Virus record (IMG/VR): IMGVR_UViG_2724679570_000003
DNA length: 64,000 nt
Source: an uncultured virus (IMG/VR IMGVR_UViG_2724679570_000003)
Lineage: Duplodnaviria > Heunggongvirae > Uroviricota > Caudoviricetes
Strand: one strand, 5' to 3'
Made by a program: the position numbers and the translations under genes. Below the pieces are notes generated by a model. The model searched no databases. It was given only the letters and a program-made list of their open reading frames with translations, and was not told the DNA's origin. Positions 707-38,033 of this stretch are shown here, piece by piece (positions within the stretch are counted from its first letter, which is position 1; every line of letters starts with the position of its first letter).

Positions 707-1066
707 GTGAAAAAGAAAAAGTTTTTTAAATTGGTCTTGCTATGTTTAAGTTTTATTTTATGTTTAGGATTGTTTGTTGGGTGTAGTGATAGTTCAGGCA
801 GAGGTAATGAGAGTGACGAAAGGTATAAAGCATATGAAACAGCAAAATCTTATGTTGAAGATGAACTAAAATCTCCAACTACAGCTGAGTTTGCAAGTAT
901 AAATGAAGCAAAAATAACTAAATTAGGAAAAGATGAATATCGAATCGAGTCTTATGTAAACGCACAAAATAGTTTCGGTGCAAAAATAAAAAGTACATTT
1001 AGTTGCAGAATTGTTGTTGATTATGACAAAGAAAAAGTAGATTGCTATGATTTGGTAATAAAATAA
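707..1066 (+). CDS. phage lipoprotein (possible superinfection-exclusion moron)
   Basis: GGAGG RBS before GTG 707; basic N-terminus, hydrophobic stretch, LFVGC lipobox. Confidence 0.65.
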   Translation: MKKKKFFKLVLLCLSFILCLGLFVGCSDSSGRGNESDERYKAYETAKSYVEDELKSPTTAEFASINEAKITKLGKDEYRIESYVNAQNSFGAKIKSTFSCRIVVDYDKEKVDCYDLVIK

Positions 1067-1085
1067 ATGTATATAATTAATTTTA

Positions 1086-1118
1086 AACCTCTAAATATAT
1101 GATAGTTAGAGGTTTTTT
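1086..1118 (+). terminator. rho-independent terminator
   Basis: aacctcta...tagaggtt followed by T-run. Confidence 0.75.
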
Positions 1119-1193
1119 GTATAAAAATAATATTTGAAAAACAGGTATGCTATAATAGTTTCAGATAAAACTATATGGAGGTTTTAAAAACAT

Positions 1194-1394
1194 ATGGCAG
1201 TAAAAAATAGATTGAAAGAAATAATAGATGGAAAAGGCTTAAAGCAAACATGGTTAGCAGAGCAAGTAGGAGTAACTAGAGGGACTATATCTAATATATG
1301 TAATAATAGATATAAAACTACTATTGAGCTTGGATTTGAAATAGCTAAAGTATTAGGGGTTGAATTTACTGATATATTTTATTATGAAGACTAG
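1194..1394 (+). CDS. Cro/XRE-family HTH regulator
   Basis: QTWLAEQVGVTRGTISNI helix-turn-helix, GGAGG RBS. Confidence 0.9.
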   Translation: MAVKNRLKEIIDGKGLKQTWLAEQVGVTRGTISNICNNRYKTTIELGFEIAKVLGVEFTDIFYYED

Positions 1395-1419
1395 TGTAAA
1401 AATTATTGTGCTTAATGTA

Positions 1420-1503
1420 TTGACAAACTAAACAAATAATAGTATTATAATATTTGCAAGGTAAAAACAACCAATTAATCCAAGCCTTGCAAATATTATA
1501 ATA
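1420..1503 (+). promoter_or_regulatory. promoter of small-ORF array with overlapping 19-bp inverted repeat
   Basis: TTGACA(1420)-17-TATTAT(1443); tattataatatttgcaagg 1443-1461 / ccttgcaaatattataata 1485-1503. Confidence 0.7.
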
Positions 1504-1516
1504 GGGAGTTGTCGAT

Positions 1517-1885
1517 ATGTTAAATAAAACAAATGCTATTAATAATATAGAGTGGAAACAAAAAATAATAAATAATGCTAAGAAGCATGAAAAAGAGAAT
1601 GAGGAAATGATTCAGGGGTTAGTCAAAAAACTAAAAACAATTAATCTATTCGGTACTTACATAAAACAAGATAATATTGCATTAGCTATAGAAGATTTCA
1701 TAGTAGAGGAAAATGACTATAACATTTTTATAATAGGACAAGCTTGTTTAAATACTGATGACGGAGAAGATTATATAGAAAATTGTATATTTGGAATTTC
1801 TAAATCAGGATTACTTAATTGGAATGATGATTTGGGAGATATAGAATTGGAATATGCAGATAACATAGTTTTATTAGAGTTATAA
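1517..1885 (+). CDS. hypothetical acidic protein
   Basis: ORF with GGGAG RBS. Confidence 0.7.
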   Translation: MLNKTNAINNIEWKQKIINNAKKHEKENEEMIQGLVKKLKTINLFGTYIKQDNIALAIEDFIVEENDYNIFIIGQACLNTDDGEDYIENCIFGISKSGLLNWNDDLGDIELEYADNIVLLEL

Positions 1886-1954
1886 TATAATTAAGAATAG
1901 TAATTGTAAGAGGATTATATTATGGAACAAAAAAAGGGGGGGGAGAGAGGTAGT

Positions 1955-2140
1955 ATGATAACATTAGATTCTATAAGAGAAAAAAATAAAAATGAACAAT
2001 CTTTTTTAAATACAAAAATAACTAAGAACACTCTTTCTCAAGAAGAATATGCAGAAGGAAGAGAAATATTTTCACAATTTGTAAAACCAATAAATGAAAA
2101 GTCTTTATATGATTATTTTAAAGAATGTGAAGATATATAA
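1955..2140 (+). CDS. small hypothetical protein (array member)
   Basis: GAGG RBS before ATG 1955. Confidence 0.6.
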   Translation: MITLDSIREKNKNEQSFLNTKITKNTLSQEEYAEGREIFSQFVKPINEKSLYDYFKECEDI

Positions 2141-2288
2141 TAGAAGTAATAATATATTTGAATTTACAGTATCCAAAGATGATTTCAATAGTATAGTTAA
2201 AAAGTTAGAAAAACCAGGACTAACTAAAGAATACTTAGATAAATGTAAAAGAGTTGCTAATTTATATAAGAAACCATCTAAAAAATAA
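2127..2288 (+). CDS. small protein resembling GNAT-antitoxin (DUF1778-like) C-terminus
   Basis: VSKDDFNSIVKKLEKP motif; start overlaps upstream gene, start uncertain. Confidence 0.45.
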   Translation: MKIYNRSNNIFEFTVSKDDFNSIVKKLEKPGLTKEYLDKCKRVANLYKKPSKK

Positions 2289-2312
2289 TTTCAAAAGTAT
2301 AGGAGAAAAATT

Positions 2313-2468
2313 ATGAATGTCAAAAGGTGGAATGATAATAAAAATAAGCTTAAAGAAAAAAATACATCACAAAACTATACAGTGGCAAATACTAAAGATG
2401 TAATTTTATCAATTAAAAAGTGTAATAAAAAATATGCTAAAGCGTTAAAGAAACTAGCTGATTCGTAA
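2313..2468 (+). CDS. 51-aa protein, C-terminus resembles Doc-neutralising antitoxin helix
   Basis: AGGAG RBS; MNVKRWND...KKYAKALKKLADS; below the ORF-track length cutoff. Confidence 0.55.
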   Translation: MNVKRWNDNKNKLKEKNTSQNYTVANTKDVILSIKKCNKKYAKALKKLADS

Positions 2469-2484
2469 GTACGGAGTGAAAATT

Positions 2485-2772
2485 ATGGGTAAAATAATTG
2501 ATATTTTTGATTATAAAAAAGAAATAAAACCAAAAGAAACCTTAACGAAGGAAGAAATAATGGAAGCAAAAGCAGATTTACTATATGATGATGATAGATA
2601 CTTAGATATGTTTTTTGAGGAAGATCATAATGATAAAATAGAAATTGAGGATATAGATGTAGAAGCAAAGTTAGCTAAAGGTAAGGAACTATTAGAACTT
2701 TTATTAATCAGGAGGAAGGATATGAGAAAGATAATAGATTTAGAAGCATACTCTCAAAACAAAAGAATATAA
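2485..2772 (+). CDS. small acidic hypothetical protein
   Basis: GGAG RBS; ORF track. Confidence 0.6.
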   Translation: MGKIIDIFDYKKEIKPKETLTKEEIMEAKADLLYDDDRYLDMFFEEDHNDKIEIEDIDVEAKLAKGKELLELLLIRRKDMRKIIDLEAYSQNKRI

Positions 2773-2919
2773 ATAGAATCTTATTCTATGTCAGATATGA
2801 TTGTTGACCCAAAAAAGAGAAAAGAAGTCTATGATTATTATGATAGAAATTATAAATCTACTCAAGAAGAGGATGAGATATGTAATAAAATGAGAGGAAA
2901 ATATAGAGAGGAAGATTAA
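2722..2919 (+). pseudogene. small ORF with in-frame TAA at 2770
   Basis: AGGAGG RBS before ATG 2722; frame continues IESYSMSDMIVDPKKRKEVYDYY...REED to TAA 2919. Confidence 0.45.
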
Positions 2920-2943
2920 ATAAGATTATTAAGAGGTTTTATT

Positions 2944-3204
2944 ATGAAAAAAATAAGTCAAAGACCTAATGATATATTAAAATCTATAGAAATAAGTTTT
3001 CAAGAAATACAGGATTTTAATAAAGGTAAGAAAAAATTAAAATCATTAAAAGAATCTCAACAATTATGGGATAAATGGGCAGAAGAAAAGTGTGAATGGG
3101 ATATTATTGCAGATATATTCACTAATGCTGCCAAAAAGAAAGGTTTAACAAAAGAACAGGTAGAAAATATAATAGAGAAGATCAAGAAAGAGACTAAGGA
3201 CTAA
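2944..3204 (+). CDS. small protein, apparent fusion of two antitoxin-like peptides
   Basis: ILKSIEISFQEIQDFNKGK + AAKKKGLTKEQVENIIEKIK. Confidence 0.55.
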   Translation: MKKISQRPNDILKSIEISFQEIQDFNKGKKKLKSLKESQQLWDKWAEEKCEWDIIADIFTNAAKKKGLTKEQVENIIEKIKKETKD

Positions 3205-3215
3205 GGAGTAATAGT

Positions 3216-3440
3216 ATGGATATAAAAAGATGGATGAACTGTAGTCAATCATTCACATTCACAAGAGATAAGCAAAAGACACATATTAGAGATGATAAAA
3301 AGAAACTAAAAGCTTTATTGATGAAAGATATAAAAACAGATGATAAAGGTAGAGTATTGTTAACTAAAGAAGATGAATGGAGAAAAGAAACAGAGTGGGA
3401 TGAATTATATAAAGATAATGATATCAAAAATATAAATTAA
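3216..3440 (+). CDS. small antitoxin-like protein
   Basis: AAGGAG RBS; MDIKRW leader; DDKGRVLLTKEDEWRKETEWD tail. Confidence 0.55.
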   Translation: MDIKRWMNCSQSFTFTRDKQKTHIRDDKKKLKALLMKDIKTDDKGRVLLTKEDEWRKETEWDELYKDNDIKNIN

Positions 3441-3459
3441 GGGACGAAGAGGTAGTTGT

Positions 3460-3633
3460 ATGGGGAATAAAGAAGAGAAGAAATTAAAAATAACGACACA
3501 AATAGCTGCAACACCAACATTATATGGAGAAGAAGCAAAAAAGGTTATTATGGAAGCGAAGACAATACCAAGTGAAAAAGCAAAAGAAAATGGACAAAAA
3601 CTATTGAATTATTTTAAAAGATTCAACAGTTAA
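3460..3633 (+). CDS. 57-aa orphan GNAT-antitoxin-like protein
   Basis: GAGG RBS; IAATPTLYGEEAKKVI aligns with MGVLPIIEGKQAKILL of 4944-5090. Confidence 0.6.
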   Translation: MGNKEEKKLKITTQIAATPTLYGEEAKKVIMEAKTIPSEKAKENGQKLLNYFKRFNS

Positions 3634-3712
3634 GTAAAAAGCTCATATCTTTAGTTTGTGTAAATGCTAAAATATGTATTATAAGATTAATAAGTTAAGA
3701 AGGATGATGATT

Positions 3713-3847
3713 ATGGAGAGAAATTGTACTATTTCTAAATCTCTTGAGGAAAGTTTAAAACAAATGAAGGCAATTAGAAGTGGTAAAATAAAAAAGAAGA
3801 CATGGAAAGAATTAAAGCAAGAACTTCAAGAAGAAGATAGTAATTAA
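3713..3847 (+). CDS. 44-aa antitoxin-like peptide
   Basis: AAGGA RBS; SKSLEESLKQMKAIRSGKIKKKTWKEL parallels N-half of 2944 ORF. Confidence 0.55.
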   Translation: MERNCTISKSLEESLKQMKAIRSGKIKKKTWKELKQELQEEDSN

Positions 3848-3901
3848 AAGTGTAGCTAAATAATTAGTCTTCAATATAATTATAAATGTGGAGGAAGAAT
3901 A

Positions 3902-4069
3902 ATGGATAGAGCGAATAAGAACAATATGGAGAAATTTTTCGGTATTGATAATATAGCCCCAATAAAGCTAACTCTATCAGATACATTAGACAAAGACGAA
4001 AAAGGTGATTGCTTTGCAGACTGGTATGAAGAAGAACTTATTGAAAAGTATAGAAAATATAATAGATAA
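3902..4069 (+). CDS. 55-aa hypothetical protein
   Basis: GGAGG RBS; MDRANK...KYNR. Confidence 0.55.
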   Translation: MDRANKNNMEKFFGIDNIAPIKLTLSDTLDKDEKGDCFADWYEEELIEKYRKYNR

Positions 4070-4131
4070 ACTAAGATATATAACTTATAAAGGGTTTATT
4101 ATAAATATTTGTACTGGGAGTGATGAATGTT

Positions 4132-4281
4132 ATGAAGAGGTCTCTGAATTTAAATAAATTAGCAACAAAAAACATAACTACTATATCATCAAAAGAGGCA
4201 TTAAAAAATGTTATACCTTTTGAATGGAGTGAGGAAGTATTAAATGGCACTAAAAAGATTAAACTTATAAAAGGTAGGTAG
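4132..4281 (+). CDS. 49-aa antitoxin-like peptide
   Basis: GGGAG RBS; ISSKEALKNVIPFEWSEEVLNG. Confidence 0.5.
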   Translation: MKRSLNLNKLATKNITTISSKEALKNVIPFEWSEEVLNGTKKIKLIKGR

Positions 4282-4289
4282 ATTCAATT

Positions 4290-4433
4290 ATGGTAAAAAA
4301 TATCTCATTAAAAAATAATACAGAACTAAGCATTAAAAATAAAAGCTTTAAAGATATGATTAAATGTGGAAAAAAAGTAAAAAAAATATTTAAATTAAAT
4401 GAGAAAGATATTTATGATTTGCTTAAAAAATAG
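4290..4433 (+). CDS. 47-aa basic protein
   Basis: AGGTAGG RBS; FKLNEKDIYDLLKK tail similar to GLTKEQVENII of 2944 ORF. Confidence 0.5.
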   Translation: MVKNISLKNNTELSIKNKSFKDMIKCGKKVKKIFKLNEKDIYDLLKK

Positions 4434-4943
4434 ATGATATAATGAGAAAGTATTTGAAATGTACTTCAAATTCTTTGATAAAGATGATGAATAATGGATT
4501 TTTGGACAATCCAATACGTTTAAGAGTGGCGTAGTAATATGTGAAAACTTAAATATCAAACAATGTGTAAAGAATTACATGACCTTAATCGTATGAGGTT
4601 TACGATCTTAATAAATCAAAGCTAAAAGTTTTCATTCGCTAAAATTGTCAATAAAACTTTGTATCTTAGTATATAATTAATAACTTTTAACATTCATCTT
4701 GTCTATATTTTTGGTACGAATTATCATCAAGTATATACCAATTTATGGTAATATATAAATATGCTAATTATTTAATATATACAAACGAAATAAATAATAT
4801 AACCCAAAAAGGCTTTATTATAAATATTTTGTAAAATATTGATAATTTGTACTGGGAGTGGTAAAATGAATATAGAGAGATGGACAAGTAGTAAAAAGAC
4901 TTATAAATTTAATAAAAGGAGAAGACAAAAAGGGGATGAGATT

Positions 4944-5090
4944 ATGGCAGTGTCAATGGGCGTTCTACCAATAATCGAAGGAAAACAAGCGAAAATATTA
5001 TTGGACAAACTTAGAAAACCTACATATGATAAAGAAACTTTAGAAAAGTATGCAAAGGAATCAAAGGAATTTTTCGATATTGAGGAATAA
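4944..5090 (+). CDS. putative antitoxin of GNAT toxin (alternative start 4866 with MNIERW leader)
   Basis: Small ORF overlapping start of GNAT gene; AGGGG RBS. Confidence 0.6.
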   Translation: MAVSMGVLPIIEGKQAKILLDKLRKPTYDKETLEKYAKESKEFFDIEE

Positions 5091-5607
5091 CAAACCGTCT
5101 ATAGAAAGAATAAATGCAGATAAACATTTGAGAATAATGGGTGATTTTGATTGTGGGTTAGAAGAAGAAATGACGGTTTTTTTTAAAAATGAAGCTCTTA
5201 ATTATGATGAAAACGGAGAAGGTAATACATTTCTTATTTTACACAACAATTGTAAAAACCAACGAACAATTATAGCATACTTTACTTTAAAGGCAAATAT
5301 AGTTAAAATAAAGGATGAAAAATATGAAGGACAAATTAGGATTATTCCATCATTAGAGATTGCCAGATTAGCTATAGATAAAGATTATCAAAATAAAGGA
5401 TATGGCAAGAAAATAATGAAGTATATAATTACTTTAGCTAACGAAATAAAAGAGAAAATTGCTATTAAATATATAATAGTGTTTTCAGTAGAATCAGCAT
5501 CAGATTTTTATAAAGAAAAGTTTAATTTTCAAGAGCTTGAAGTGAATAAGGATACTTTTTCAGATTCAGATAATGAAGGATGCAAACCGTTGTATATCGT
5601 AATATAA
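5080..5607 (+). CDS. GNAT acetyltransferase, TacT/AtaT-like toxin type
   Basis: FDCG..., IIAYFTL, IPSLEIARLAIDKDYQNKGYG acetyl-CoA motif, SASDFYKEKFNF. Confidence 0.8.
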   Translation: MRNNKPSIERINADKHLRIMGDFDCGLEEEMTVFFKNEALNYDENGEGNTFLILHNNCKNQRTIIAYFTLKANIVKIKDEKYEGQIRIIPSLEIARLAIDKDYQNKGYGKKIMKYIITLANEIKEKIAIKYIIVFSVESASDFYKEKFNFQELEVNKDTFSDSDNEGCKPLYIVI

Positions 5608-5640
5608 CCACTATATATGTTGTAAATATATAGTGGTTTG
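5606..5640 (+). terminator. terminator hairpin
   Basis: aaccactatata...tatatagtggtt. Confidence 0.65.
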
Positions 5641-5847
5641 GTCTTTGATATTAATTAAACAACTACATAAAGTTTCAAAAGTTTTACTAAAACTTCTAGC
5701 TTCAATTAGTTAGGAGTTTTTATTTTGCATAAAATTAAGATTTAAAGGCATTTTCATAATGTCTTTTTATTTTTGCTTAATATATCTACATAAAAAATAT
5801 TATGTAAATATAATTAAAGTAAACAAAATATGAAAGGAGGAATTTTA

Positions 5848-8800
5848 ATGAGCTTAGGAATACATACTTCGTTTACTTTAGAAGATTTAGGTTCTTTAAC
5901 TACTAGAGTTGAAACTCTTTTGGGTAAAGTAGGAGAAAATAGTAAAATAAAACTAGATTTTTCAGATGGAATGTCTTTAGATAAGATGCAACAACAAATA
6001 AATAAACTACAACAAGAAATTATTAAAGCTAGTAAACAGTCTAGTCAAACATTTATAAAGACTTTTGATAATGTAAATAAACAATTTGAACAACAAATAG
6101 ATAAAATAAAAAATAATTTAAAAAACATAGGGTCAAATGTAAATGTTAATTCTATAAAAGATGATTATGGAAAGATAATAGGTGCTATGGCTCAGTATGA
6201 AGACAAGGCAGGAAATATTGTAACAAAGAATTACGAGATAGATAAATCATTTAAAAATATAGGTAACGATGGAAAGTATATTAATAAATTAAAAGCTGTG
6301 ACTGATACAAGATTACAAGATCAGGATAAAATAATTAAATCATTGGAAAAAGAAAGAAAAAAGATAGAAGAATTAACTGGTTCTATAGCTAAATTAAAGG
6401 TTAGTGAAAGCGGAAATGGTAGAATTCAAAGTGCAAAAATTAGTTATGTAGATAATGATAATAAATTAGTTGAACAGGCGTATAAAATAAAAGAAGATAT
6501 AAAAAGAAAAGAAAATGTTATAAATAAAGGTTTGTCTTTAGAAAATACAGGTTTTAATACTACTGAAAATGTACAAAAAAGTATAAAAACATTAGAACAA
6601 TATCAGAAAACCATAGATAAATTGAATGAAAAAAATATAAAACTAGGTGATGGAAGCCAAAGTCAATTGTTTATTAAAAATCTTGAACAAGCACAGACAT
6701 TAATTGATAAAACAAAATCATCTGGTGAATCTATGAGCAAAAGTATTCAAAATGAACTTAATATTTTGATTAGTAAAATGAATTTTGAAAATAAAACAAT
6801 TAAAGAAAATAACACCGAAATGAAAAAAAAAGAAAAGATAATGAAAGATGCTCCTGTGGCAATACAAGGATATGAAAATAAAATAAAAAAATTAACAGAT
6901 TCTTATGGGAAATTAATTAAAGAAGCTGATTTAAAAAAACTAAGAGAAGAAATGGCTAAATTAGCAAATTCAAAAGAACCTGAAGAATACGCTAGGCAAT
7001 TGAAGGTTATAAAAAATGAATATGATAAATTAGAGAACTCTGTAAATAGTGGTGGTAAAAAGGGGAATGGGGGTATATTAGCTTCTATTGGTGAGGCAAT
7101 GACAAAGTTTCCCATTTGGATAGGTGCTACTACTGCTTGGATGGAAGCCATACATAAGGTCAAGGAAGGTATTGGCTTTATAGCTGATTTAGATAAAGCT
7201 CAAACTAATATAAGTATGATAGCTGGTATTGGTAAAAAAGAAGTCGCAGGTTTGACTGATGAGTACAGCAAATTAGCAGGTCAATTACATACTACTACAT
7301 TAGAAATGATGGGTGAACAAAGCACTATTGCCCATGTAAAACCTCGTGAACCTAGAAATCTAGGGTGTACATTTAACGTTAAAGTATCAAATGGGAAATA
7401 ATTTGTTAATAAATGTGCTAACAGGGGAAGAGAAATCCAATCCTGTGCGAAATTATATTTATTTTTAAATATATAATCGTTAAACGACTATCGAAACCAT
7501 AGCATAAATGTAATTAGGGTTGTTTATGTAAATAAGGAAGTAGAGTGAATTAACACTATTAGTACATCCATAGCGAAACTCTATGGGTGGAAGTGCGAGG
7601 ACTTAACCTAATAAGTATGATATAGTCTATTGATTAATTTAAATAATTAATGGGTGCAGAAGAGTTCCTTAGAGCTGGTAGAAGCGTAGAAGAAACTAAA
7701 GGATTATTAAAGGCTTCTACAATTGGTGGTGCAATTTCAGGACAAGATAATAGAGCAGTTTCAGAACAATTAATTGCAATAACTAACGGTTTTAGTAATA
7801 TGACTGAACAAGCACAGAAAGATGGAAAAAGTTATGAAGAGGTAGTAATGCATGTTATAGATACTATTTCAACATTAGATAATGCTTCTGCTACTTCATT
7901 CCAAGAAGTTGCTACTGCTATGATGAGAACATCATCTTCAGCACAAATGGCAGGAGTAAGTTTTGAAACATTAGCATCTTATGTGGCTACAGTTTCAGCT
8001 ACAACAAGAAAATCTGCGGAAAGTATTGGTGAATCCTTTAAAACCATGTTCGCAAGATTTCAAGATATTAAACAAAATATTAATGTTGATGATGGTGTAA
8101 CTATATCTAACGTTGAAAAGTCGTTGGATAAAGTAGGAGTTGCACTTAGAAAAGATAAGTATCATTTCAAAGAGTTTTCTCAAATTATTGAAGAGCTTAA
8201 ACCAAAATGGAAAGAATTCAATGATTTAGAAAAAGCAGATATAGCCAAAAGTTTAGCAGGTAAAATGTGTGCCTGAGTATACAGCAATGTATATTAAGAA
8301 GCGAACCATATCGGGAAAACCCCAAACATGTAATGATGTGGGCAATTCCGAGGAAAGATTATTTATTTAAAATATAGTGTAATAAAATAAAAAAGATGGT
8401 GATGAATATAAAGTGGACAAGCGAGAAAATAGAATTATTGAAAAAATATTATCCTAACAGTAGTTGGGATTTTTTATTTGAAGTTTTACAATGTTCAAAT
8501 AAAGAAAGTATAATCCATAAGGCATATAAATTAAATATAAAAAGACAGGGTTTTTATTATACAGATAAAGATATAGATTTTTTAAAAAATAATTATGATA
8601 AAATGCCTATAGAGGAGATAGCAAAACATTTAAATAAAACTCCAGTTGCAATAATGACAAAAGCTAATAATTTAAAATTACATAAAACAGATAAATGGTC
8701 AGAAGATGAAATGAAATTATTAGAACGAGTATATGGAAAATATACTAATAAAGAGTTGTCAGAAAAGTTTTTTACTAATAGAAATGTAGAAAGCATTAGA

Positions 8801-11800
8801 ACAATGGCTAATAAAAATAATTTAAAAAAAGATAAAAAAGGAGTAAAGAAATATAATCCAGATGATATGCTTGAACAATTGCAAAACTTAGCTGATAAAT
8901 TAGGTAGAACACCAAAAATACCCGAATTAAGATTATATAACTTGCCATCTGAGTCGTCTTATAGAAGATATTTTGGTTCTTATATTAATGCATGTAAATT
9001 AGCAGATTTAGATATTAATATATGTTTATTTGGCAAAAAAAGAAAAATACCTAAATCTTTAAACGGAGATGTTTGTTTTTCAAATGCAGAAACAATAATT
9101 ACTGATTTCTTTATAAAAAATAATATTAAATATATCAAAGAACCATATTATAAAGACTATATGGATGATGAAAGATGCAAAACCAAAAGATGTGATTGGA
9201 TTATAGATAATAATGTTTTTGTTGAATATTTTGGACTCCCAGATAAATCTTATTATTATAAAAAGATGGAAATAAAAAGACAGATATGTAAAGATAATAA
9301 CATAAAATTAATTGAATTATTTGAGAAAGATTTAGATAAATTAAATACTATATTTTAAATAAATAAAATCCGTAACGACTAGTACGTTCGCCTCCTATAA
9401 AAAATATAGGATGAAGATAGAGTCTGATCGTCTATGGAAACATAGAGAGGAATGGTCGGTATGAAATAATTACCTAAAGAAGTACCATTCCCGCCATAGC
9501 AAAATAATTTGTTATGGTCAGTAACTTGTTTTTGCAAGTGAAAGTAACAGCTTGACGCACCAAAGGGAAAATTTCTTGGTATTGATGAATAACTTAGATC
9601 AAGTGAATAACCTTCAAAAAGAGGTGAATAAAGCAGCAGGAGATTCCGAAGATAAATTTAATAAAATTTATGGAAATTCGCTTGAAGCAAAAGTTAAAGA
9701 TTTTAAACATACTTGGGAAGAGTTTTATCAATCCATAATTTCTAGTGATGCTTTAAAAGTAATAGTTCAATCAGGAACTAAATTGGTTGGTGTATTAGAT
9801 GCATTAGTTAATTCAAGTGGTGGTATGAAATTAAGTTTATTAGTTTTACTGCCAACAACAATTTTATTAGCAAAAAGATTTAAAGATTTTTTTAATGTTT
9901 TAAAAGATGGTAAAAACTTATATTCGATAAGTACAGCATTTAAAACATTATTTAATATAACTGATGCAGGATTACCATCTATAAGTAAATTAAAAGGGGC
10001 ATTTTCAAATTTAGGAACAGTCTTATTAAATTTAGTGACAACGCCAACGGGATTAATATTCTTAGGTATAGCAACAGCAATAGGTGTAGCAACAGCAGCA
10101 GTAATTAAACACATAAAACATCAATCAAAAATGAGAGAAGAAAATAAAAAACTAAAACAAAGTTATGAAGATTTAACCAAGGCAATGAAAGAAAATAATA
10201 AAGAAGCTATAAAAAATGCTTCAGAAGACCCTAAAAAGGCTCAAGATGAATTACAGGGTTTAATGAAAAAAAGGGAAGAACTGAAAAAGATGATGGAAGG
10301 TTCACCCAATATGAAAGATGGAGTAAGTTTAGGAGTTGCTAATCAGTTAAAAGAAACTGAAACTCGAATTCAAGAACTAAAAAAAGCACTTAAAGATAAC
10401 AACTTTACAATTGATGAAACAACAGGAAAGATAGCTGACCTAGCAAAAGCATCATCTCATATGGCTAATTTGGACATGGCAAATGCAATAAAAGAAAATG
10501 CAGATTATGAAATTCAAGAAAAAGATGCTATTATCGGGTTATATGATGAATATAATAGATTAATTTCAATTAAAAATAAAAACAAAAGCCAAGAAATGGA
10601 ATTAAGTCATGTATCCGAATCTTTAAATGATAAAGTTAAAGGGTTGATTCTGACAAAAGATAAAGAAGGTAATGTAATAATTGAGAATACAGGTTTGCTA
10701 AATACAGAGATAGATGTTCTTAACACTGAAGGACTTACTGTTGACAAACTTACTAAAGTTAAATTAGAAGCAGCAAAGCAACATGCTCAAGCACAACGAG
10801 GAATGACTAAAATGTCTTATGAAGAGACTAGAAAAAGGATACTTTTTTTACAAGAGGAAATTGGGAAAAAGCAAAAGTTAGCAGATACTTTTAATGAGGT
10901 TCTTCCAAGTTTAAAGATTACAGGAACAAATCCTTTTCAAAAACCAGTAGATATGTTGACAAGTGAAAAGTTAGATTGGCAAAAGGAACTGGATAGATTA
11001 GATAGCATTTATAAGCAACCCACTAGTACAACAACTCCCGATGTACCAGATTTCAACCCTACAGACCCAGAAAAATTTAAAAAAAGTACAGATGCATTAA
11101 AAGAAAATACAGGTGAGACGGATAAAAATAGAGAAGCTGTAAATAAAGCTAAAGAAGCGGTAAAGCAATATGAATTAGCATTAAAATCACTAGAAATTCA
11201 AATGACTAAAAATAATATCGCATTAGGAAGATTATATGAACATAGTGATAGTTACATAAATAAATTAAAAGAAAAACAGAATCTAATTAAACAAGAAATT
11301 GCATTAAATAAGCAACAAATTGCTATGAATGGACAATTAGCTAACTCACTAGGTGCTGTAGGTGGTTCATATGTTAATGGTATGGGCAATAGTATTGGTG
11401 AACAAGTAGTAAGAAATGCACAACAGTATTTAGGAAAACCATATAAATGGGGAGGCTCTAACCCCAGTGAATCTTTTGACTGTTCTGGATTAGTTCAATA
11501 CGTATATAAACAAGTAGGAATACAATTAAATAGAACTACATATGACCAAGTTAAACAGGGAACTCCTGTTGCTAAAAATCAATTACAAGTAGGAGACGCT
11601 GTTTTCTTTGGTAGTCCATCTTCACCACACCATGTAGGAATATATATGGGAAATGGACAATATATACATGCACCAAAGTCAGGTGATGTAATTAAAGTTT
11701 CTAGTTTAAATAGTAGAAGTGATTATGCAACTGCCAGAAGATATGCAAGTGGAGGAAGCTCTGTTAGTAGAACGACTTCATCTAACTATAGTGGTAAATA

Positions 11801-14699
11801 TGCTAGTTATATAAATGAAGCAGCTAGTAAATATGGAGTTTCTGCTGCGTTAATAGCTGCAATAATAAAAGCTGAATCAGATTTTAATCCTAATGACCGT
11901 TCTGGTGCAGGGGCAATGGGTTTAATGCAGTTGATGCCTGAAACAGCTAGAGAATTAGGAGTAAATAATCCATTCGATCCACGTCAAAATATTATGGGTG
12001 GTACACAAGAAATTTCTAAATATCTGAAAAAATATAATGGTAATTTAGATTTAGCTTTAGCTGCCTATAATGCAGGTATGGGAAATGTCCAAAAATATGG
12101 AGGAGTTCCACCGTTCAAAGAAACTAAAGATTATATTCCTAAAGTTAAAAAATTCATGAAGGAATATGGTGGTAGTGAATCATCTATTCATTCAACAATA
12201 GATGAACAAATGGATTTAATTGGAAAGTCAATGGATATGGAAAAGAAAAATCTTGAACTTCAAGAAGAATTAAATAAAATAAATATTCAAATATTGGAAG
12301 CAAGATTAGGACAGTTTGATGACAAAGTTAAATCTATAGATAGAACAATAACTCAGTTAAGAACCGATGTAGATTTACAAAATAAAAATGATATTAATTA
12401 TATCAACTATTTGTCTAAAATAGATGATTATACTCTTAAAAAGTTAGATGTTCTTAAAAAAGAAAGAGATTTTATAAAAAAAGAAATAAGCTCAGGAATA
12501 TATGATGAAAAAACTATAAAAATGCTAGGTGAAAAGTATTCTGATATAGGAACAGAAATGTTAAATGTAACTAAAACTATCAAAGATGTGAGTTTAGAAT
12601 TAGTCACTGCTAAATGGGAAGCCATCCAGCAGATTTATAAAGAAAATATAGAAATGATTTCAAATGAACTAGATAGACTTAGTTTACATGAAGAAAAAAA
12701 TATCAAACAAATAATGATATTAAAGAAACAATTAGTAGAACAAGATGAAGAAAATATTAGAAGAATGACTGAACTAATAAGAGAAACTAATGATATAGCA
12801 TATAAATATGGCAAAGATTTCTTGTTAGATAAAGTTAGAGAGTATACTGCTGAATTAGATAAAGCTAATACTGAACTAGAAAAGCATAAAAAAGAGCTAG
12901 AAGATATCAAAGACAAAATGTCTGAAATGAAGTCTACTATAGAAGATAAGTTAAGAGAAATTTTAACTAAAACTGCTGAATTAGCGAAAGAACAATTAGA
13001 TAAAGTTTTAAAGCATTTTGAAGAAACTATAGATGCTGAGTTAAAGAAATTAGATGAAGCAGAAAAAAGAAATAGTTATAACGAACAAAAAACTGAGCAA
13101 TTAAAGACTATAGCAGAATTACAAGAAAAAATAGCCAAATTAGCAACAGATGACAGTGAAGAAGGTATCGCAAGAAGATTAGAGTATGAGAAACAATTAC
13201 AAGAAGAAATGAAGAAAAAGACAGATTTACAGATGAAGCATAACAATGAATTAAAGAAAGAAGCTCTAACAAAACAAAAGGAAGAAAAGAAGAAAGAAAT
13301 AGAAAAGAAAAAACGTGATATCGATACTAGATTAGATAATGTTTATTTGAATCTGGATGCAAGAAAAGCACTAACTGAAGGCTATATTGAATGGATTGAT
13401 GGTAAAAGAATAGGAATCCAAAATGCTCTATTACAATTTGAAGATTTATTTGGGAAAGGCTTAACTTCATTAGGAGATAAAATAAAGAAAGAATTATTAG
13501 AACAATTAAAAGCAGCCCAAGACTTAGTAAATGGAATAGAGAAACAAGACCCTGATAAAATACTTGAAGAAAATAAAACTAAAAATGTATACGGTACAGG
13601 GGCAGATTTAGCCAATTCTCGAAAGATATTAGGTTCTTTAGGATATAACTATATTGACACAAGTTTAGTAGACAAAACTAAGTTGCATTTCGGAAAAGAT
13701 GATATAGTTGTAGGTGATACTGGTGCTATCAACGGTGTTGATAGACAAGATTTAAATGGAGCAATAAGACTAGGTGGGAAAAACAGATATGATACCGCAG
13801 GGATTATACAATTATATTCAGACATTCAAAGTGGAAGAATTAAGCCTGTTGGCGGAATTGTATATGGTACGGGACAAGATTTAAAAAATGCTATAGCATG
13901 GCTGAGTCCTCTAGGATATGAATTTGTAGATACATCTAAAATAAATCCTAAAGATATTAATTTTAATCCAAATGATATTATTGTAGGTGGCAAAGGAGCT
14001 AAAGGTGGAGTAGACTTTGATATTGATGGCGTCACTAGATTAGGTGGTTCTGATAGAAATGATACATATAATAAAATAAGAGACAAAGCACTAATTGATT
14101 TAAATGCTATGAATAAAGCTAATTATGTGCCTAAATCTAAGTATGGAAAAGTATATGGAACTGGTTATGATTTAAAATCAGCTAAGAAATATCTTACTAA
14201 ATTAGGTTATCAGTTTGTAGATACCAATTCTGTTAGAGATGTTGAATTAACAGCGAATGACATTGTTGTTGGTGGCACTATGGATGGTAAGGAGCAAATT
14301 TATAATAGTCAAGCGAGATGGTTATTTGGTAAAGATAGATATCAGACTGAGAGTGAGATAGCTAATTATGCAAATACCATGAGCGATATTAAAGGTTATT
14401 ATGATAAAGGTGGAGTTGCAGATTTTACAGGAAAAGCTATGCTTCATGGGAATCCTAATGCAGTAGAGACTATATTTAACGCAGAACAAGGTAAGAAATT
14501 ATATAATTTTGTTAATACCTTACCTATAAATAATTTTGGGTATGGAATGAATAGAAATCTACAACCCGCAATGGCAACTAGTAACAATAATAATATTGAA
14601 ATAAATTTTCATATTGATAAAATGTATGGAACAGAAAATGAAGCTCAAGGTTTTGCTACTAAAATAATAAATACTCTTAGAAATAGAGGAAAGTATTAA
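5848..14699 (+). CDS. tape measure protein with NlpC/P60, lytic transglycosylase and three C-terminal repeats; exons 5848-7314, 7653-8261, 9555-14699 (about 2406 aa)
   Basis: AAGGAGG RBS; TP901-type TMP core joined in frame across introns (MMG|GAEEFLRAG; LAG|THQRENF); FDCSG..HVG..IHA; AES..GAMGLMQLMP..AYNAG. Confidence 0.9.
7315..7652 (+). ncRNA. group I intron 1 (ORF-less, 338 nt)
   Basis: P1 atgggt/gcccat with U-G at the splice site, P10 gcact/ggtgc, P3 cctcgt/gcgagg, P7 gacta/tagtc, terminal G; removal restores frame. Confidence 0.9.
8262..9554 (+). ncRNA. group I intron 2 with homing endonuclease ORF (1293 nt)
   Basis: P1 caggt/gcctg, P10 tgtgt/acgca, P/Q tatcgggaa..ttccgagg, R cgtaacgacta, S gatagagtc, terminal G; removal restores frame. 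Confidence 0.9.
8402..9358 (+). CDS. intron-encoded putative homing endonuclease (W-x-x-E repeats, associated helical repeat, PD-(D/E)xK-like C-terminus)
   Basis: KWTSEKIELLK / KWSEDEMKLLE repeats, LGRTP..PS..Y.RYFGS, S..E...CDW..VFVEYFG; lies inside intron 2. Confidence 0.75.
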   Translation: MNIKWTSEKIELLKKYYPNSSWDFLFEVLQCSNKESIIHKAYKLNIKRQGFYYTDKDIDFLKNNYDKMPIEEIAKHLNKTPVAIMTKANNLKLHKTDKWSEDEMKLLERVYGKYTNKELSEKFFTNRNVESIRTMANKNNLKKDKKGVKKYNPDDMLEQLQNLADKLGRTPKIPELRLYNLPSESSYRRYFGSYINACKLADLDINICLFGKKRKIPKSLNGDVCFSNAETIITDFFIKNNIKYIKEPYYKDYMDDERCKTKRCDWIIDNNVFVEYFGLPDKSYYYKKMEIKRQICKDNNIKLIELFEKDLDKLNTIF

Positions 14700-14749: not shown

Positions 14750-17700
14750 TTGATAAAGAGCAGTTTATATTTCAATTATGCAGGTAGAGATAGTTTAGAA
14801 TTTAATATTATAAATGGTTCTGTAGATAATGCAGAATTAAAAGAAAATTTTTTAGCTAATAAGAAAATAAAAGAAATAAATACTATAGAGGCTGATAAGC
14901 CTTATTTTCAAGGAATAGAAAGAAATCCATTACAACTTAAATTACAATTTTGTTTCACAGAAAAATGGAATAAAGAATTAATAAGGGAAGTGGAAAGATG
15001 GTTGGATCAAGATGAATATCAACCATTATATTTTTCTGAAGACCCTGAAAAGATTTATTATGCTATACCCGTTGATGATATAGAAATGACTCATTTTGGA
15101 TTAGAGCAAGGGTATTTAGATATAACTATGAGATGTAATACTTATCATGCGTATAGTAGGGAATATTTAAGTGAAACTTATGATTTAAGTGCAGATAATG
15201 AAAATGGTACAGAAATAATAATACCCAATTATGGAGATATTGATATTAAACCTGATATATGGATTAAGAAAATAGGTGATGGTAGTTTAGAAATAATAAA
15301 TAAAAATAATGGTGGAGAAGTTACAAGTTTTTGTAATGGCTCTAGTGGTAAGGGTATACTAAAATTCACAGGAACAGTATTTGATAGCGAAATCGTAACG
15401 ATAGGTGATAAGATATTTGAATTCGATACAGGTGATGGAATTGTAAATGAAAATGTTAAACAATGGACGCAAGGATTTAAATATATAGATGGAACAATAG
15501 TTAATAAAAGTGGGATTTTATACCAATGTATTAAGACAAATACTGATGAAGAATGGGATGAGAATCACTGGAAAAAGCTAGAGAAAAGCAATATAAAAGT
15601 AGATGTAAGTGCAGATGCTAACCCTGCACAAGCGAAATTAGTTTTTAATAACACACCCATTGAAGATAGTGATAATATTTCCATTGGTAATAACACCTAT
15701 GAATTCGATTTTGATGATGTCTATGAAGCTAAAAACGGTCATATTCCAATTAGTTTAAAAAACTATACAACGCAAGCAAATGGAAGATTAATAGCTAGAA
15801 GTAATTTAGATTTTGCAGGAAGTAAAATTAAAGTAGGAGATCAGGAATATGAAATAACAGCCTCATCAAATGAAGGAATTGCAATTACCAAGAATACTGG
15901 ATTGAAAGGTTGGAATAATTGGAGATTGGATTCTTATTTTGAATCCGATTCTGATTTTAAAGATGCAACCTTATTAATAAATGAAAAAAGAGACAACACA
16001 CTTGATGGAGTAAGGATACCTTTAGTAAGTGATTTCGTTAATAATAGAATAGATAAAGAAAAGCAGATTATTGAGCTGTTCAAATTAACAAAATTTTTAG
16101 GAATCCCTGCTGAAAGATATGCTGATACAGGAAAGTTCCAACCTGTTTCTGAAGGTATTAAAGGACAGGATATAGGTGATGAGTTGAGTGTTTATAAAAG
16201 AACTGGAAGAAGCTTTAAAGTAGATATGATAAATTCTACATCTAATAAATTTTATATTAACAAAATGTTTCAAAGAAATGGTGTAACTACTAAAAACATG
16301 GAAGCAAAAATAGGAGCAACTAATTAGTTGTTAAAAATATACTCAAATATAAATAAATATAGACAAAAGTATATTTTTAAAACAAAAGCTCCCTACATTC
16401 GTAAAGAGTGTAGAGTGATGATTTTAAATCATCCAAAACTCCTTTAATTGCTGGAAGTCCCTAAAGCTACATTAACCACAACGTAAGAATGAAATAAGTC
16501 TAAGCGTGAAGGTGATGAAAGTAGAAAAAATAATGTAGATAGCATAAGGTCAAATCCTAAGTGCCTTAATAATGGGTAATCAGCAGGTAAGCCTCGAATA
16601 GAGGAAACTTCAACGACTAGAGAGAAATCTCGTACCTTCAAGTGAGGGGAAATGGGGAGAACCTTAAATAATTAGGGTTGTGATATAGTCTGTGCGTCAT
16701 ATGAAAGTATGAGAAGTTCATAAGAGAACTGCATAAGAGTAACGATCTTATGTGAACACTCTAAAAATATATACAAATGTCAATTAGATAATTCGTAAAA
16801 CAACCGTATTTTAAAATTTTATAATTATTTATTTTCTAAATCTTTAATAATTAATTTATAAACATAATTACTAACAGAACGTTGTTCTTTACTAGCTTTT
16901 AATTTTAATTGTTCATTCATTTCCTTAGGAATAGTAATTTTAATTCTTGTATTATTTTTACTAATAGCCATAATGCCACACCTCAAAAATACATTTATTA
17001 AATTAAGAATATCATAAATCAAAGGTGTTGACAAGGTGGGGACACTATGATAATATATAAATATGGTAAATAAGTGAGGTGATTAATAATGGGTACTATC
17101 ATTAAAACAGTAAAACAATATTCCTATGAATTAGATGATGATATATTACAAGAATTAAAGTTTATAGCTAATCAATATAAGAATGTAAAGAATTATATCT
17201 ATTCAAGATACAGTGGAATTAATAGTATTCCATTATTAAAGAAACATAGAGAAATAAGAAATGAATGGACTAAAAATAAATTTTATGAACAATGGAAATT
17301 ACCAGCTAGGTATTGGAAATTAGCATTAACTGAAGCTATAAGTAATATAAAGTCAGAATGGAGTAATATTAAAAGAAGAGTAAAAGAACAATGTAAAGAA
17401 AACAATAATTTATCAAATGAAGATAAATATTATATTAATTATATTCTTAAATTTGATAATTATTATTGGAAAGTGTTAACGAATCAATCTTTTGAAATTC
17501 CTAAAACATTTCAAGATAAAGAATTGAATTATAAATATCTTAATAGTCTTATTAAAAGATATACAAGAAGATATAAAGGATGTATACCATATTCTAAAAT
17601 AAGCAATAGTTTTTCAATTGATAAAGGATTATATTCTTACAAAGATGGTTATATAAAGATTGCTTGTATCGAAAAATATAAAAGATTATCTATTAAATTA

Positions 17701-37960: not shown

Positions 37961-38033
37961 TAATACCAAAACTATTAGTAAGGAAGGATACAATCAATGG
38001 GGTTGATAATACTACCTTCATAGTTTTGGTATT
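37961..38033. terminator. long hairpin at convergence of the two arms
   Basis: taataccaaaacta / tagttttggtatta. Confidence 0.6.

Follow-up and report, generated by a model that had tools for sequence, protein, structure and literature searches.

The window, a 64,000-nucleotide stretch of DNA from an uncultured virus (IMG/VR IMGVR_UViG_2724679570_000003), raises the question of what a mobile element does with 13 tiny genes in a row. A first-pass annotation proposed that these genes form a library of stripped antitoxins that neutralises several families of host toxins. The present analysis partly supports a narrower reading, in which the region would be an accessory operon of mixed content, two or more of whose genes are orphans derived from antitoxins, rather than a demonstrated multi-toxin library. 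The window features given below by coordinates lie on the plus strand.

Genomic setting of the array

The accessory region appears to be a variable operon on a phage-plasmid (~200 kb) that belongs to the Clostridium botulinum/sporogenes group. The element matches 23 Clostridium plasmids by blastn (best identity 93.8%), and an IMG/VR virus with a completeness rating of 99% is its closest relative among the records compared. It carries tail, lysis, integrase, and nucleotide-metabolism genes, and the phage-like setting that had been proposed is borne out by this phage-plasmid content.

The array is located between a conserved pair of XRE regulators and the tail tape-measure gene. Sequence comparison indicates that it is mosaic and has been swapped with plasmids of the MPF_T type that share its hosts; its gene order and reading frames are preserved in two unrelated plasmid backbones. 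In the MPF_T plasmids, one flank of the array is composed of methyltransferase, PspC, PAPS-reductase-family, and NADAR genes, and the opposite flank of a replication-relaxation gene and an AAA ATPase. In L005 the array is absent and a PIN pair occupies its site, and sister elements carry a PHD_like and HicA-like pair close to it.

Organization of the tiny-gene operon

Upstream of the array is a 66-aa XRE-type HTH regulator gene (1194..1394; Pfam HTH_3, 4.6e-11; phrog_3, 6e-14), which is kept at 52-100% in sister phage-plasmids. It is followed by a near-consensus promoter-like site, TTGACA-17-TATTAT (1420-1448, 11/12), whose -10 element is overlapped by a perfect 19-nt inverted repeat (1443-1461 / 1485-1503). 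Together, 1420..1503 is likely the promoter and putative operator of the operon. The first gene behind it (1517..1885, 122 aa) has 73-100% identity in L001, L002, and L005, a dN/dS of 0.18-0.29, and no family match in Pfam, PHROGs, or NCBIfam. It is a backbone gene and also occurs in array-less sister elements.

The 13 small ORFs that had been described behind an XRE regulator and promoter are confirmed as consecutive ORFs of 30-95 aa within 1955-4534. As read here, they start at 1955, 2127, 2313, 2485, 2788, 2944, 3216, 3460, 3713, 3902, 4132, 4290, and 4442. Purifying selection is observed in 12 of the 13 (dN/dS 0.07-0.47), each compared with a diverged ortholog (dS >0.1), and the ratio remains well below 1 in comparisons where dS reaches 0.8. 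ORF 4442 has a single ortholog, which is near-identical. A Shine-Dalgarno core with a spacing of 3-8 nt is clear in nine ORFs, in agreement with the ribosome-binding sites noted earlier for most of them, and weak in one more; none was found for 2127, 2788, and 4442. Because of the selection on 12 of 13 ORFs and the Shine-Dalgarno cores of 9-10 of 13, the array ORFs can be taken as real genes that evolve as proteins. The only two terminator-like sites in 1000-6000 are hairpins at 5606..5720, before the tape-measure gene, where they close the unit.

A resident GNAT acetyltransferase and its small partner

At the distal end of the region is a 175-aa GNAT acetyltransferase gene of the AtaT/KacT/TacT toxin type (5080..5607; Pfam Acetyltransf_7, 1.4e-8; phrog_1758, 1e-31), whose start agrees with the annotation of P0006. 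The family profile retrieves 15 PDB sequences at E <=0.001 (2e-17 to 9e-8), all small GNAT acetyltransferases. One of these is named KacT; from their entry codes, the others are presumably AtaT, TacT, and relatives. These matches support placing the protein among GNATs of the tRNA-acetylating toxin type. The small partner gene (4866..5090) overlaps the GNAT gene by 11 nt and encodes a long form of 74 aa with a conserved core of 48 aa from 4944. This inner start has its own Shine-Dalgarno sequence, and record P0003 annotates the 48-aa form. The partner lacks a DNA-binding domain, as originally described. The pair is conserved in L001, L002, L013-16, and a Eubacteriaceae chromosomal MAG (L006). 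A conserved promoter/leader (4788..4865) with TTGATA-17-TAAAAT and a TG (4839-4867) precedes it, and partner and GNAT form a second unit with a promoter of its own.

ORF 3460 and its mini-protein family

ORF 3460 (3460..3633, 57 aa, dN/dS 0.24-0.31) has no GNAT gene of its own and is a member of a T-P-x-L-x-G-x-x-A family whose T, P, L, G, and A positions are invariant in 30 sequences, ORF 3460 among them. It matches the family profile at 98.6% (E 1e-15). The family comprises 1189 clusters at E <=0.001, with lengths of 46-192 aa in the best 150 of these, and none of 47 tested members has a Pfam match. Inspection of the gene neighbors of its relatives, which had been set as a check for the peptides, is informative here. 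Of 39 metagenome loci, 24 (16 tandem, 8 convergent) place a GNAT that fits the profile of the window's GNAT next to a family member, and so do both genome matches. The remaining metagenome loci comprise two with only an N-terminal GNAT piece, four that are too short for a decision, and nine without a GNAT. In 11 of 12 viral loci no GNAT is found within 2 kb, and at least eight related large viral contigs with the phiCD211 52-aa protein conserve orphan copies. Split GNATs lie beside family members in L017/L050/L055, L052/53, and L075, and the metagenome locus L065 has three family paralogs around one GNAT. The family thus described is large, widespread, and unnamed, and a GNAT of putative toxin type is usually directly beside its members, proteins of 46-90 aa. 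By the neighbors of its relatives, ORF 3460 would be an orphan antitoxin-derived gene.

The first-pass annotation considered ORF 3460 a paralog-like match to the ORF coupled to the GNAT gene. Pairwise, this similarity is not significant (z 1.5, p 0.09); as a distant kinship, it holds. With a 109-sequence profile of the 3460 family, the GNAT partner comes first among the 301 other ORFs of the window (hhalign E 5e-5, 65-67%), with a score of 16.0 for the next unrelated ORF. Profile against profile, the two align at 72% (hhalign E 3.3e-5) in the register drawn earlier. In L076, a GNAT-linked member has a motif intermediate between the 3460 family and the resident partner. These comparisons support the resident partner as a divergent, distant member of the family. 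Because Pfam and PDB profile searches find no sequence relation between the 3460 family and DUF1778, KacA, or TacA, the picture of a stripped antitoxin tail is drawn from pattern and position only.

ORF 4290, a shared leader, and a shared start motif

ORF 4290 (4290..4433, 47 aa, dN/dS 0.13-0.26) matches residues 42-87 of the product of 5960-6223 in L005 with 67% identity (tblastn 9e-17). That gene is followed by a PIN_3 gene (3e-14), in the same order in L030 and L031, and no PIN remnant is found in the window. Without a toxin of its own, ORF 4290 is an orphan copy of the C-half of the small partner that accompanies a PIN toxin in sister phage-plasmids. Its proposed resemblance to the C-half of 2944 was not confirmed (z 1.4 and -1.4). 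A chimera of 4290 with a GNAT partner is found in L013.

In relatives, a promoter/leader of ~60 nt is common to the PIN, GNAT, and HicA-like partner genes. A degenerate copy, marked by repeats D1 and D10, lies at 4069..4131 of the window, and the leader's exact 13-mer occurs only at 4110 and 4848. The start motif M-[ND]-[IV]-[KE]-R-W, a pattern drawn up after the three window sites had been noticed, has three matches in the window against 0.00 expected. In sister plasmids it has eight matches, all at annotated gene starts of the locus (control, 0). These six codons are all that ORFs 2313 and 3216 have in common with the toxin partners. ORF 2313 (2313..2468, 51 aa, dN/dS 0.14-0.20) scores z 3.2 against the GNAT partner. 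ORF 3216 (3216..3440, 74 aa), which begins with M-D-I-K-R-W, matches the GNAT-partner HMM with an E of 0.0015 for which its N-terminus is responsible, and has no AbrB/MazE match in Pfam.

Array genes without an established toxin link

Eight of the 13 members (1955, 2127 at best weakly, 2485, 2788, 2944, 3713, 3902, and 4132/4442) have no toxin-system link and no toxin-linked relatives in the collections searched. ORFs 1955 (1955..2140, 61 aa, dN/dS 0.33-0.41, no family match) and 3902 (3902..4069, 55 aa, dN/dS 0.16-0.26) are core members present in 6/6 array-bearing loci. ORF 2127 (2127..2288, 53 aa, dN/dS 0.14-0.22) has a GTG start that overlaps the preceding gene. It resembles the GNAT partner core by Smith-Waterman (z 3.9), the GNAT-partner HMM (E 0.013 among 342 window ORFs), and hhalign (E 0.0016, probability 16%), and is barely above decoys with the 3460-family profile. 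It has no DUF1778 match and is a weak candidate for a third member of the GNAT-partner superfamily.

The first ~70 residues of ORF 2485 (2485..2772, 95 aa) match the N-terminal part of what is one gene of 112-121 aa in both L002 and L004 (5501-5839 in L002). ORF 2788 (2788..2919, 43 aa, dN/dS 0.20-0.30) equals the tail of this fused gene and is therefore probably a split product of a larger gene. ORF 2944 (2944..3204, 86 aa) is an in-frame fusion of two L001 genes, 4845-5006 and 5010-5258 (z 33 and 25). ORF 3713 (3713..3847, 44 aa, dN/dS 0.07-0.28) had been matched to the N-half of 2944, a likeness that the comparison scores support modestly (z 3.8, p 0.003; z 4.4 when the separate gene of L001 is used instead). 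ORF 4132 (4132..4281, 49 aa, dN/dS 0.12) has 87-94% identity in L001 and L002, and 4442 (4442..4534, 30 aa) is a doubtful ORF.

Possible roles of the array

The reading that we consider, on balance, probable is a variable accessory operon with toxin-less antitoxin relatives (3460 and 4290) that would silence GNAT and PIN toxins. A single strong promoter, overlapped by an inverted repeat, lies ahead of the 122-aa gene and the 13 tiny genes. Family members would be antitoxins of which only the part that binds the toxin is left (short strand, helix, proline turn, helix), with no DNA-binding domain. On a mobile element, the toxin-less copies may bind related GNAT or PIN toxins, whether these belong to the host or to competing elements, and silence them, and entry and maintenance would thereby be protected. 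The other eight genes would be small accessory or establishment genes. Binding or neutralising of a host toxin by an array member is a prediction. Against this reading stand the non-significant pairwise comparison of 3460 with the partner and its moderate hhalign value, the eight members lacking a toxin-system link, and the convergent partner/GNAT pairs (8/39 loci), an arrangement atypical of toxin-antitoxin operons. Not all GNATs beyond the DUF1778-linked clade are proven toxins (PMC9177977).

In the broader proposal, most of the 13 peptides are stripped tails of DUF1778, Phd, AbrB/VapB, MazE, and RelB antitoxins that form a library against GNAT, Doc, PIN, MazF, and RelE toxins, which we regard as improbable. 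Part of it stands, as 3460, through its GNAT-linked relatives, and 4290, through the PIN partner, are antitoxin-derived by context, and 2313 and 3216 add the partner start motif. The three paralogs around one GNAT in L065 also fit a library. Array ORFs rank high among 342 window ORFs by the GNAT-partner HMM, but a common lysine- and glutamate-rich composition may explain these ranks. The Doc, MazF, and RelE parts do not stand, as no link to these toxins is found anywhere, nor does the claim for most members. A curated cut-off in Pfam or NCBIfam is reached by 0 of 15 small ORFs scanned. DUF1778, Phd, AbrB/MazE, and RelB are not found with Pfam, NCBIfam, PADLOC, PHROGs, or PDB profiles; Phd, MazE/AbrB, RelB, VapB, and DUF1778 have no match even at E <=1-10, and DUF1778/TacA1 has none for the relevant peptides at E <=10. 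PF08681 is absent from six-frame searches of four related plasmids, and of 250 Clostridia genomes sampled, just two contain it. With no library match, the DUF1778, Doc, MazF, and RelE family assignments are unsupported; so is the suggestion that about half of the members are antitoxin tails.

Alternatively, the site may be a hotspot for the exchange of toxin-antitoxin cassettes that have the promoter/leader in common, and the ORFs functionless leftovers in which toxins were lost and partner pieces kept. The leader before PIN, GNAT, and HicA-like partners, the PIN pair in place of the array in L005, and the split GNATs beside family members agree with this, and the deletion fusion 2944, the split 2485/2788, the L013 chimera, and the decayed leader (4110-4131) also fit such a graveyard. 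Leftovers are nevertheless distinctly unlikely in light of the selection on 12 of 13 ORFs, 3460 and 4290 included, the preserved order and frames across two backbones, and the orphan 3460-family copies kept in viral contigs. It is also unlikely that the array is a general set of early or establishment genes, whose small products would serve host takeover or the entry phase without relation to toxin systems (for example, peptides that act in regulation or against restriction), with the two antitoxin-like members as incidental passengers. That the array is one regulated operon, preceded by a gene of the XRE repressor type, would suit such a role. The array flanks in MPF_T plasmids resemble a leading region, a kind of region in which anti-defence genes are enriched (PMC11541004). 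In the general libraries searched, known anti-restriction and anti-defence families have no match among the members.

Comparison with known systems

The closest known systems are the GNAT-RHH pairs (KacAT, TacAT, AtaRT; DUF1778 / PF08681 TacA1). Along its entire length, the window's GNAT aligns with the solved toxins of this group, and a small gene lies directly upstream and overlaps it. KacT is wrapped by the C-terminal strand-helix-PPAP-helix of KacA, and a KacA from which just the first 10 N-terminal residues are missing can still neutralise KacT (PMC6698736). Judged from its sequence pattern, the partner core would follow the same order of strand-like stretch, helix, proline turn, and helix. 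Unlike these antitoxins, the partner is 48-74 aa, has no ribbon-helix-helix domain, and matches neither PF08681 nor profiles of the KacA, TacA, and AtaR chains. DUF4065 (PanA-type)-GNAT pairs are reported as a second antitoxin type and offer a precedent for GNAT toxins that swap antitoxin family, and the partners named in that source are DUF1778 and DUF4065 (PMC9177977). The window's partners are far smaller and lack DUF4065.

Phage orphan antitoxins resemble the array's candidates in being toxin-less antitoxin relatives on a phage or mobile element, as are the 11 of 12 viral 3460-family loci without a GNAT. T4 Dmd is one phage-borne orphan antitoxin that acts in counter-defence. In T4-like phages, an orphan antitoxin-like enzyme counters DarTG1 (PMC11825919). 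Those are single enzymes or proteins with shown activity, whereas the window has candidate mini-proteins, known from sequence, in a multi-gene operon. Leading-region anti-defence islands of conjugative plasmids (PMC11541004) are similar in their dense same-strand small genes beside transfer genes, as found in the array-bearing MPF_T plasmids; in the window, by contrast, the array lies in a phage-plasmid beside tail genes. The PHD_like (PF12910) and HicA-like pair of sister elements is absent from the window and has only its first ~35 residues in common, but its promoter/leader and its M-N-I-E-R-W start are shared by the GNAT and PIN partners.

A regulated operon of tiny genes

The array is composed of 13 plus-strand ORFs of 30-95 aa, running from 1955 to 4534 and named here by their start positions. 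It is preceded, in order, by an XRE gene (1194-1394; HTH_3, 4.6e-11), a promoter-like site downstream of that gene (TTGACA-17-TATTAT, 1420-1448), and a gene for a 122-aa protein. Among promoter-like sites 3' of the XRE gene, the strongest has its -10 element overlapped by a perfect 19-nt inverted repeat (1443-1503), a likely operator. A Shine-Dalgarno core is clear in 9 of the 13 array ORFs, weak in one, and absent in three. Between 1000 and 6000, terminator-like hairpins are found only 3' of the GNAT gene that lies beyond the array.

The array ORFs were compared with seven related loci by the Nei-Gojobori method. A diverged ortholog is present for 12 of the 13, with dN/dS values of 0.07-0.47 and dS of up to ~0.8; counts per gene are small and the direction is the same throughout. 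For ORF 4442, the seven loci hold a near-identical ortholog only. Because dN/dS is well under 1 and points the same way in all comparisons, the array ORFs are protein-coding genes. The first-pass annotation had described a run of consecutive tiny ORFs after an XRE gene and promoter, and that run is real: it is a regulated operon made of real tiny genes.

The element

The window has a G+C content of ~26%. In a blastn search, positions 1100-5700 matched 23 plasmid records, all from Clostridium botulinum or C. sporogenes. The top plasmid is pNPD1_1, with 93.8% identity over 78% of the query, and no plasmid record covers at least 80% of it. The phage collection gave zero blastn matches. The nearest record, an IMG/VR virus rated 99% complete, has 196,981 bases. 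Since this viral relative is as long as plasmid pNPD1_1, calling the element a phage is correct if a phage-plasmid is meant.

Elsewhere, the window encodes a three-piece tape-measure protein, Dit and tail proteins, an endolysin, and a holin, as well as an integrase, topoisomerase II, thymidine kinase, and several TnpB-type genes. The tape-measure pieces (5830-7401, 7650-8276, and 9552-14699) span 5830-14699. Two of them are separated by a 320-aa HNH/D5-like ORF (8396-9358), a layout suggestive of an intron or a homing-endonuclease insertion. The element also carries four dispersed transposase-like ORFs of the TnpB/IS605 type (3-395, 17089-18480, 38613-39749, and 63356-64000). GC and AT skew switch sign at about position 38000, where gene orientation also flips.

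The resident GNAT module

The resident GNAT gene (5080-5607) matches Acetyltransf_7 (1.4e-8) and phrog_1758 (1e-31). As a single sequence searched against the PDB, its 175-aa product matches 6ajn (3.3e-6) and KacT (3.8e-5). A profile built with six relatives returns 15 PDB matches at E<=0.001 (2e-17 to 9e-8), all of them small GNAT acetyltransferases aligned over nearly their full length. KacT is the only named one; from their entry codes, we take the remaining matches to be AtaT, TacT, and relatives. A candidate catalytic tyrosine near the C-terminal F-Y-x-x-x-G-F, Y144, is invariant in six of six aligned relatives and aligns with the F-Y motif tyrosine of 9ilr_A and 7f37_B, the two best chains, both unnamed acetyltransferases. 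By sequence, the resident GNAT is of the AtaT/KacT/TacT toxin type. A second GNAT was ruled out, and 5080-5607 is the only one in the window.

The small partner ORF (4866-5090) lies upstream of the GNAT gene and overlaps it by 11 nt. Its conserved core starts at an inner M-A-V-S at 4944, which has its own ribosome-binding site, and the 48-aa form from this start is exactly what one public annotation calls. The pair is also found in pNPD1_1, pRSJ19_2, four IMG/VR contigs, and the chromosome of a Eubacteriaceae MAG, where a 66-aa ORF terminates in ATGA at the GNAT start. Word-indexed protein searches returned close C. botulinum relatives only, four for the partner and two for the GNAT.

ORF 3460 and its family

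ORF 3460 has a weak tblastn match in Clostridioides phages of the phiCD211 type, to a stand-alone gene for a 52-aa protein. An alignment of ORF 3460 with the phiCD211-type sequences was used for further scans of viral, metagenome, and genome sequences. The residues T, P, L, G, and A of the motif T-P-x-L-x-G-x-x-A are invariant in 30 sequences, ORF 3460 among them. ORF 3460 matches the family profile, of which it is itself a row, at 98.6% (E 1e-15); its shuffle-based z of 11 to the phiCD211 protein supports membership independently. In an exhaustive HMMER search, the family comprises 1189 representative clusters at E<=0.001; the best 150 of these are 46-192 aa long, mostly below 95, with the motif at the N-terminus. 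The ten family clusters looked up are all named only "hypothetical protein," none of 47 members has a Pfam match at E<=0.001, and one of 31 metagenome members touches DUF7279. In the ESM Atlas, ORF 3460 retrieves only unnamed clusters, at 0.84-0.86, under the level taken as a lead. No description of the family was found in literature outside subscription journals on GNAT toxins, their antitoxins, DUF1778, or DUF7279. One locus (L028 1983-3086, the same as L071) encodes a 367-aa protein with a T-P-T-L-Y-G motif as its N-terminus and no Pfam family.

Many family members have a GNAT gene as neighbor. The GNAT profile (E<=1e-3) was run over all six frames of 39 metagenome loci, near-duplicates included. 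A GNAT adjoins the family member in 24 of the 39, or in 20 of 33 when counted by distinct partner sequence. It lies immediately downstream on the same strand in 16 loci, at a gap of -4 to +11 and with a frame change splitting the GNAT in 3 of the 16, and is convergent in 8, with the 3' ends touching or overlapping. Another two loci carry a 45-aa N-terminal GNAT-like piece alone, four are on contigs too short for a verdict, and nine have no GNAT. Among 401 sampled Clostridia genomes, the family occurs twice and is GNAT-adjacent both times. Viral contigs hold 12 family loci, 11 of them without a GNAT within 2 kb, and 8 of those 11 represent one phage lineage. In the viral locus L017, the family homolog terminates in ATGA where a GNAT gene begins; this GNAT matches both KacT and the GNAT family of the window (hhalign 96%, E 3.6e-9 for the latter). 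ORF 3460 itself has no adjacent GNAT; the window's only GNAT is 1.4 kb away with its own partner, and pCB111 carries a 3460 ortholog and no such GNAT.

Some of these loci have further peculiarities. The convergent layout, unusual for toxin-antitoxin pairs, belongs to one subfamily (L037, L049, L057, L058, L060, L061, L065, L073, and L075). One of its loci, the 2-kb metagenome contig L065, has three 3460-family paralogs (415-624, 1654-1863, and 1926-2075) around one minus-strand GNAT (697-1176), all within 415-2075. GNAT genes beside family members are split into two frames in L017 (2132-2753), L052 (1246-1383), and L075 (1717-2384), which reflects either toxin decay or assembly error.

Relationships among the small genes

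The resident GNAT partner is probably a divergent member of the 3460 family. Against a 109-sequence family profile, hhalign gives it 72% probability (E 3.3e-5), with the alignment running from the first methionine. Among 301 window ORFs of 30-130 aa, it ranks first after ORF 3460, scoring 28 against 16.0 for the next unrelated ORF. The partner keeps P, G, and A of the family motif and lacks T and L, and in L076, a genome member linked to a GNAT, the motif falls between those of the 3460 family and the partner. ORF 2127 is a weak candidate member: it reaches 16% (E 0.0016) by hhalign, and its score of 16.9 is barely above decoys.

Paralogy within the window was evaluated by pairwise Smith-Waterman scores against 2000 shuffles. 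The first-pass annotation had proposed three relationships, which fare differently. A likeness of ORF 3713 to the N-terminal half of ORF 2944 receives modest support (z 3.8, p 0.003), and a likeness of ORF 4290 to the C-terminal half of ORF 2944 is not supported and was rejected (z 1.4). The proposed match of ORF 3460 to the GNAT-coupled ORF is not significant as a pair (z 1.5) and is recovered in the same register by the family profile.

ORF 4290, the PIN pair, and a shared leader

Downstream of the XRE and 122-aa genes, the Su0604 plasmid and two IMG/VR contigs carry no array; an 87-aa gene and a PIN_3 gene (3e-14) occupy the site instead. ORF 4290 covers only residues 42-87 of this 87-aa PIN partner, at 67% identity (9e-17), the N-terminal 41 residues being missing. 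The window contains no PIN gene or remnant, and a candidate remnant in 4434-4865 was looked for and rejected. When viral contigs were scanned with ORFs 2127 and 4290, the matches were confined to the same plasmid lineage or to the sister form linked to PIN.

In one related locus (L013 1357-1479), a 40-aa chimera joins a 4290-type front to the C-terminal end of a GNAT partner, which points to recombination between partner genes. In MPF_T-type plasmids, the 4290 ortholog is followed by a 133-aa gene with no Pfam family and no similarity to PIN. These plasmids also have, immediately upstream of the array, genes for a NADAR-domain protein (2e-50) and a PAPS-reductase-family protein (L004 3071-3580, L008 1807-3294).

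The PIN partner, the GNAT partners, and a PHD_like gene (PF12910, 1.3e-13), which is paired with a HicA-like gene in these elements, have in common a 60-nt promoter/leader and an M-N-I-E-R-W start. ORF 4132 is preceded by a decayed copy of the leader. The six-codon start pattern, defined post hoc, occurs three times in the 64 kb (2313, 3216, and 4866) against 0.00 expected. In three sister plasmids it occurs eight times, each at a gene start in the array locus, against 0 in controls. Because the pattern was written after the sites had been seen, it only weakly suggests that ORFs 2313 and 3216 may be kin to toxin-partner genes.

Searches for known antitoxin families

Array members had been likened, by family pattern, to the toxin-neutralizing ends of known antitoxins. 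This likeness was not borne out: in Pfam and NCBIfam, all 15 small ORFs stay below the curated cut-offs, and no match to Phd/YefM, MazE/AbrB, RelB, VapB, or DUF1778 appears there at E<=1. The PADLOC matches likewise include no Phd/YefM, MazE/AbrB, RelB, or VapB, and consist of a single weak partial match to LmuA (1.1e-4) on ORF 2944. PHROGs gives weak matches only, to families of unknown function. For DUF1778/TacA1 (PF08681), Pfam shows nothing at E<=10, whether for the 2127, 3460, and 4944 cores or for four relatives. In six-frame searches, PF08681 was not found in any of four related plasmids, in the Eubacteriaceae MAG genome, or in a further record (G001). Across 250 Clostridia genomes, it has two matches, covering the N-terminal part only and too few for a profile-profile test. 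Family profiles A3 and A11, and ORF 2127 alone, find no KacA, TacA, or AtaR chain at E<=10 in the PDB; profiles of ~50-aa proteins have little statistical power. The observation that the small proteins lack a visible DNA-binding domain holds: these 48-74-aa proteins have no DNA-binding family match in Pfam or NCBIfam and no ribbon-helix-helix.

Possible roles of the array

Two serious alternatives concern most array members. They may be debris of cassette exchange: ORF 2944 is an in-frame fusion of what are two separate genes in pNPD1_1, and ORFs 2485 and 2788 are parts of what two other plasmids carry as one gene (112-121 aa). Alternatively, most members may be generic establishment genes. 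Six core genes (1955, 2127, 2485, 2788, 3902, and 4290) keep their order, at 63-87% protein identity, in the MPF_T-type plasmids pCB111, pOsaka2020-1, pCBH, and pRSJ11_1. The array there is flanked on one side by methyltransferase, PspC, PAPS-reductase-family, and NADAR genes and on the other by a replication-relaxation gene and an AAA ATPase. By gene content, its position looks like a leading region. The low dN/dS values speak against debris. The array also holds two toxin-less relatives of toxin partners, and the GNAT beyond it, which is of the toxin type, has a small partner lacking a DNA-binding domain.

In the likeliest mechanism, 3460-family members would neutralize the neighboring GNAT by binding it directly. 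Stand-alone copies on a mobile element would neutralize related toxins, whether those of the host or those of rival elements, as counter-defense or anti-addiction. The full version of the earlier proposal, a library against GNAT, Doc, PIN, MazF, and RelE toxins, is unsupported. A revised form of it seems to us unlikely: Firmicutes phages and phage-plasmids would collect toxin-less minimal antitoxins free of DNA-binding domains, chiefly from the GNAT-partner family and as PIN-partner fragments, in one regulated operon that serves as a multi-target shield against toxin-antitoxin abortive infection or plasmid addiction. On this view, ORFs 3460 and 4290, with ORFs 2127, 2313, and 3216 as further possible cases, would have separate targets among the toxins of host and rivals and would silence them. 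Arrays of sub-100-aa genes, commonly passed over by annotation, can carry interpretable functions.

Two antitoxin types, DUF1778 and DUF4065, are described for GNAT toxins in PMC9177977. There may be a third partner type, 46-90 aa long, without a DNA-binding domain, comprising 1189 clusters outside Pfam and often alone on phages; if true, it would enlarge the toxin-antitoxin catalogue and provide a concrete case of mobile elements with orphan antitoxins as counter-defense or anti-addiction tools. KacA's C-terminal region is given as strand-helix-PPAP-helix in PMC6698736, and the partner and its family resemble it at the level of sequence pattern only. Because the family profiles match no KacA, TacA, or AtaR chain, kinship with DUF1778 is not established. 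The mechanism proposed for the toxin-less copies fits a published idea, that of phage orphan antitoxins (PMC11825919).
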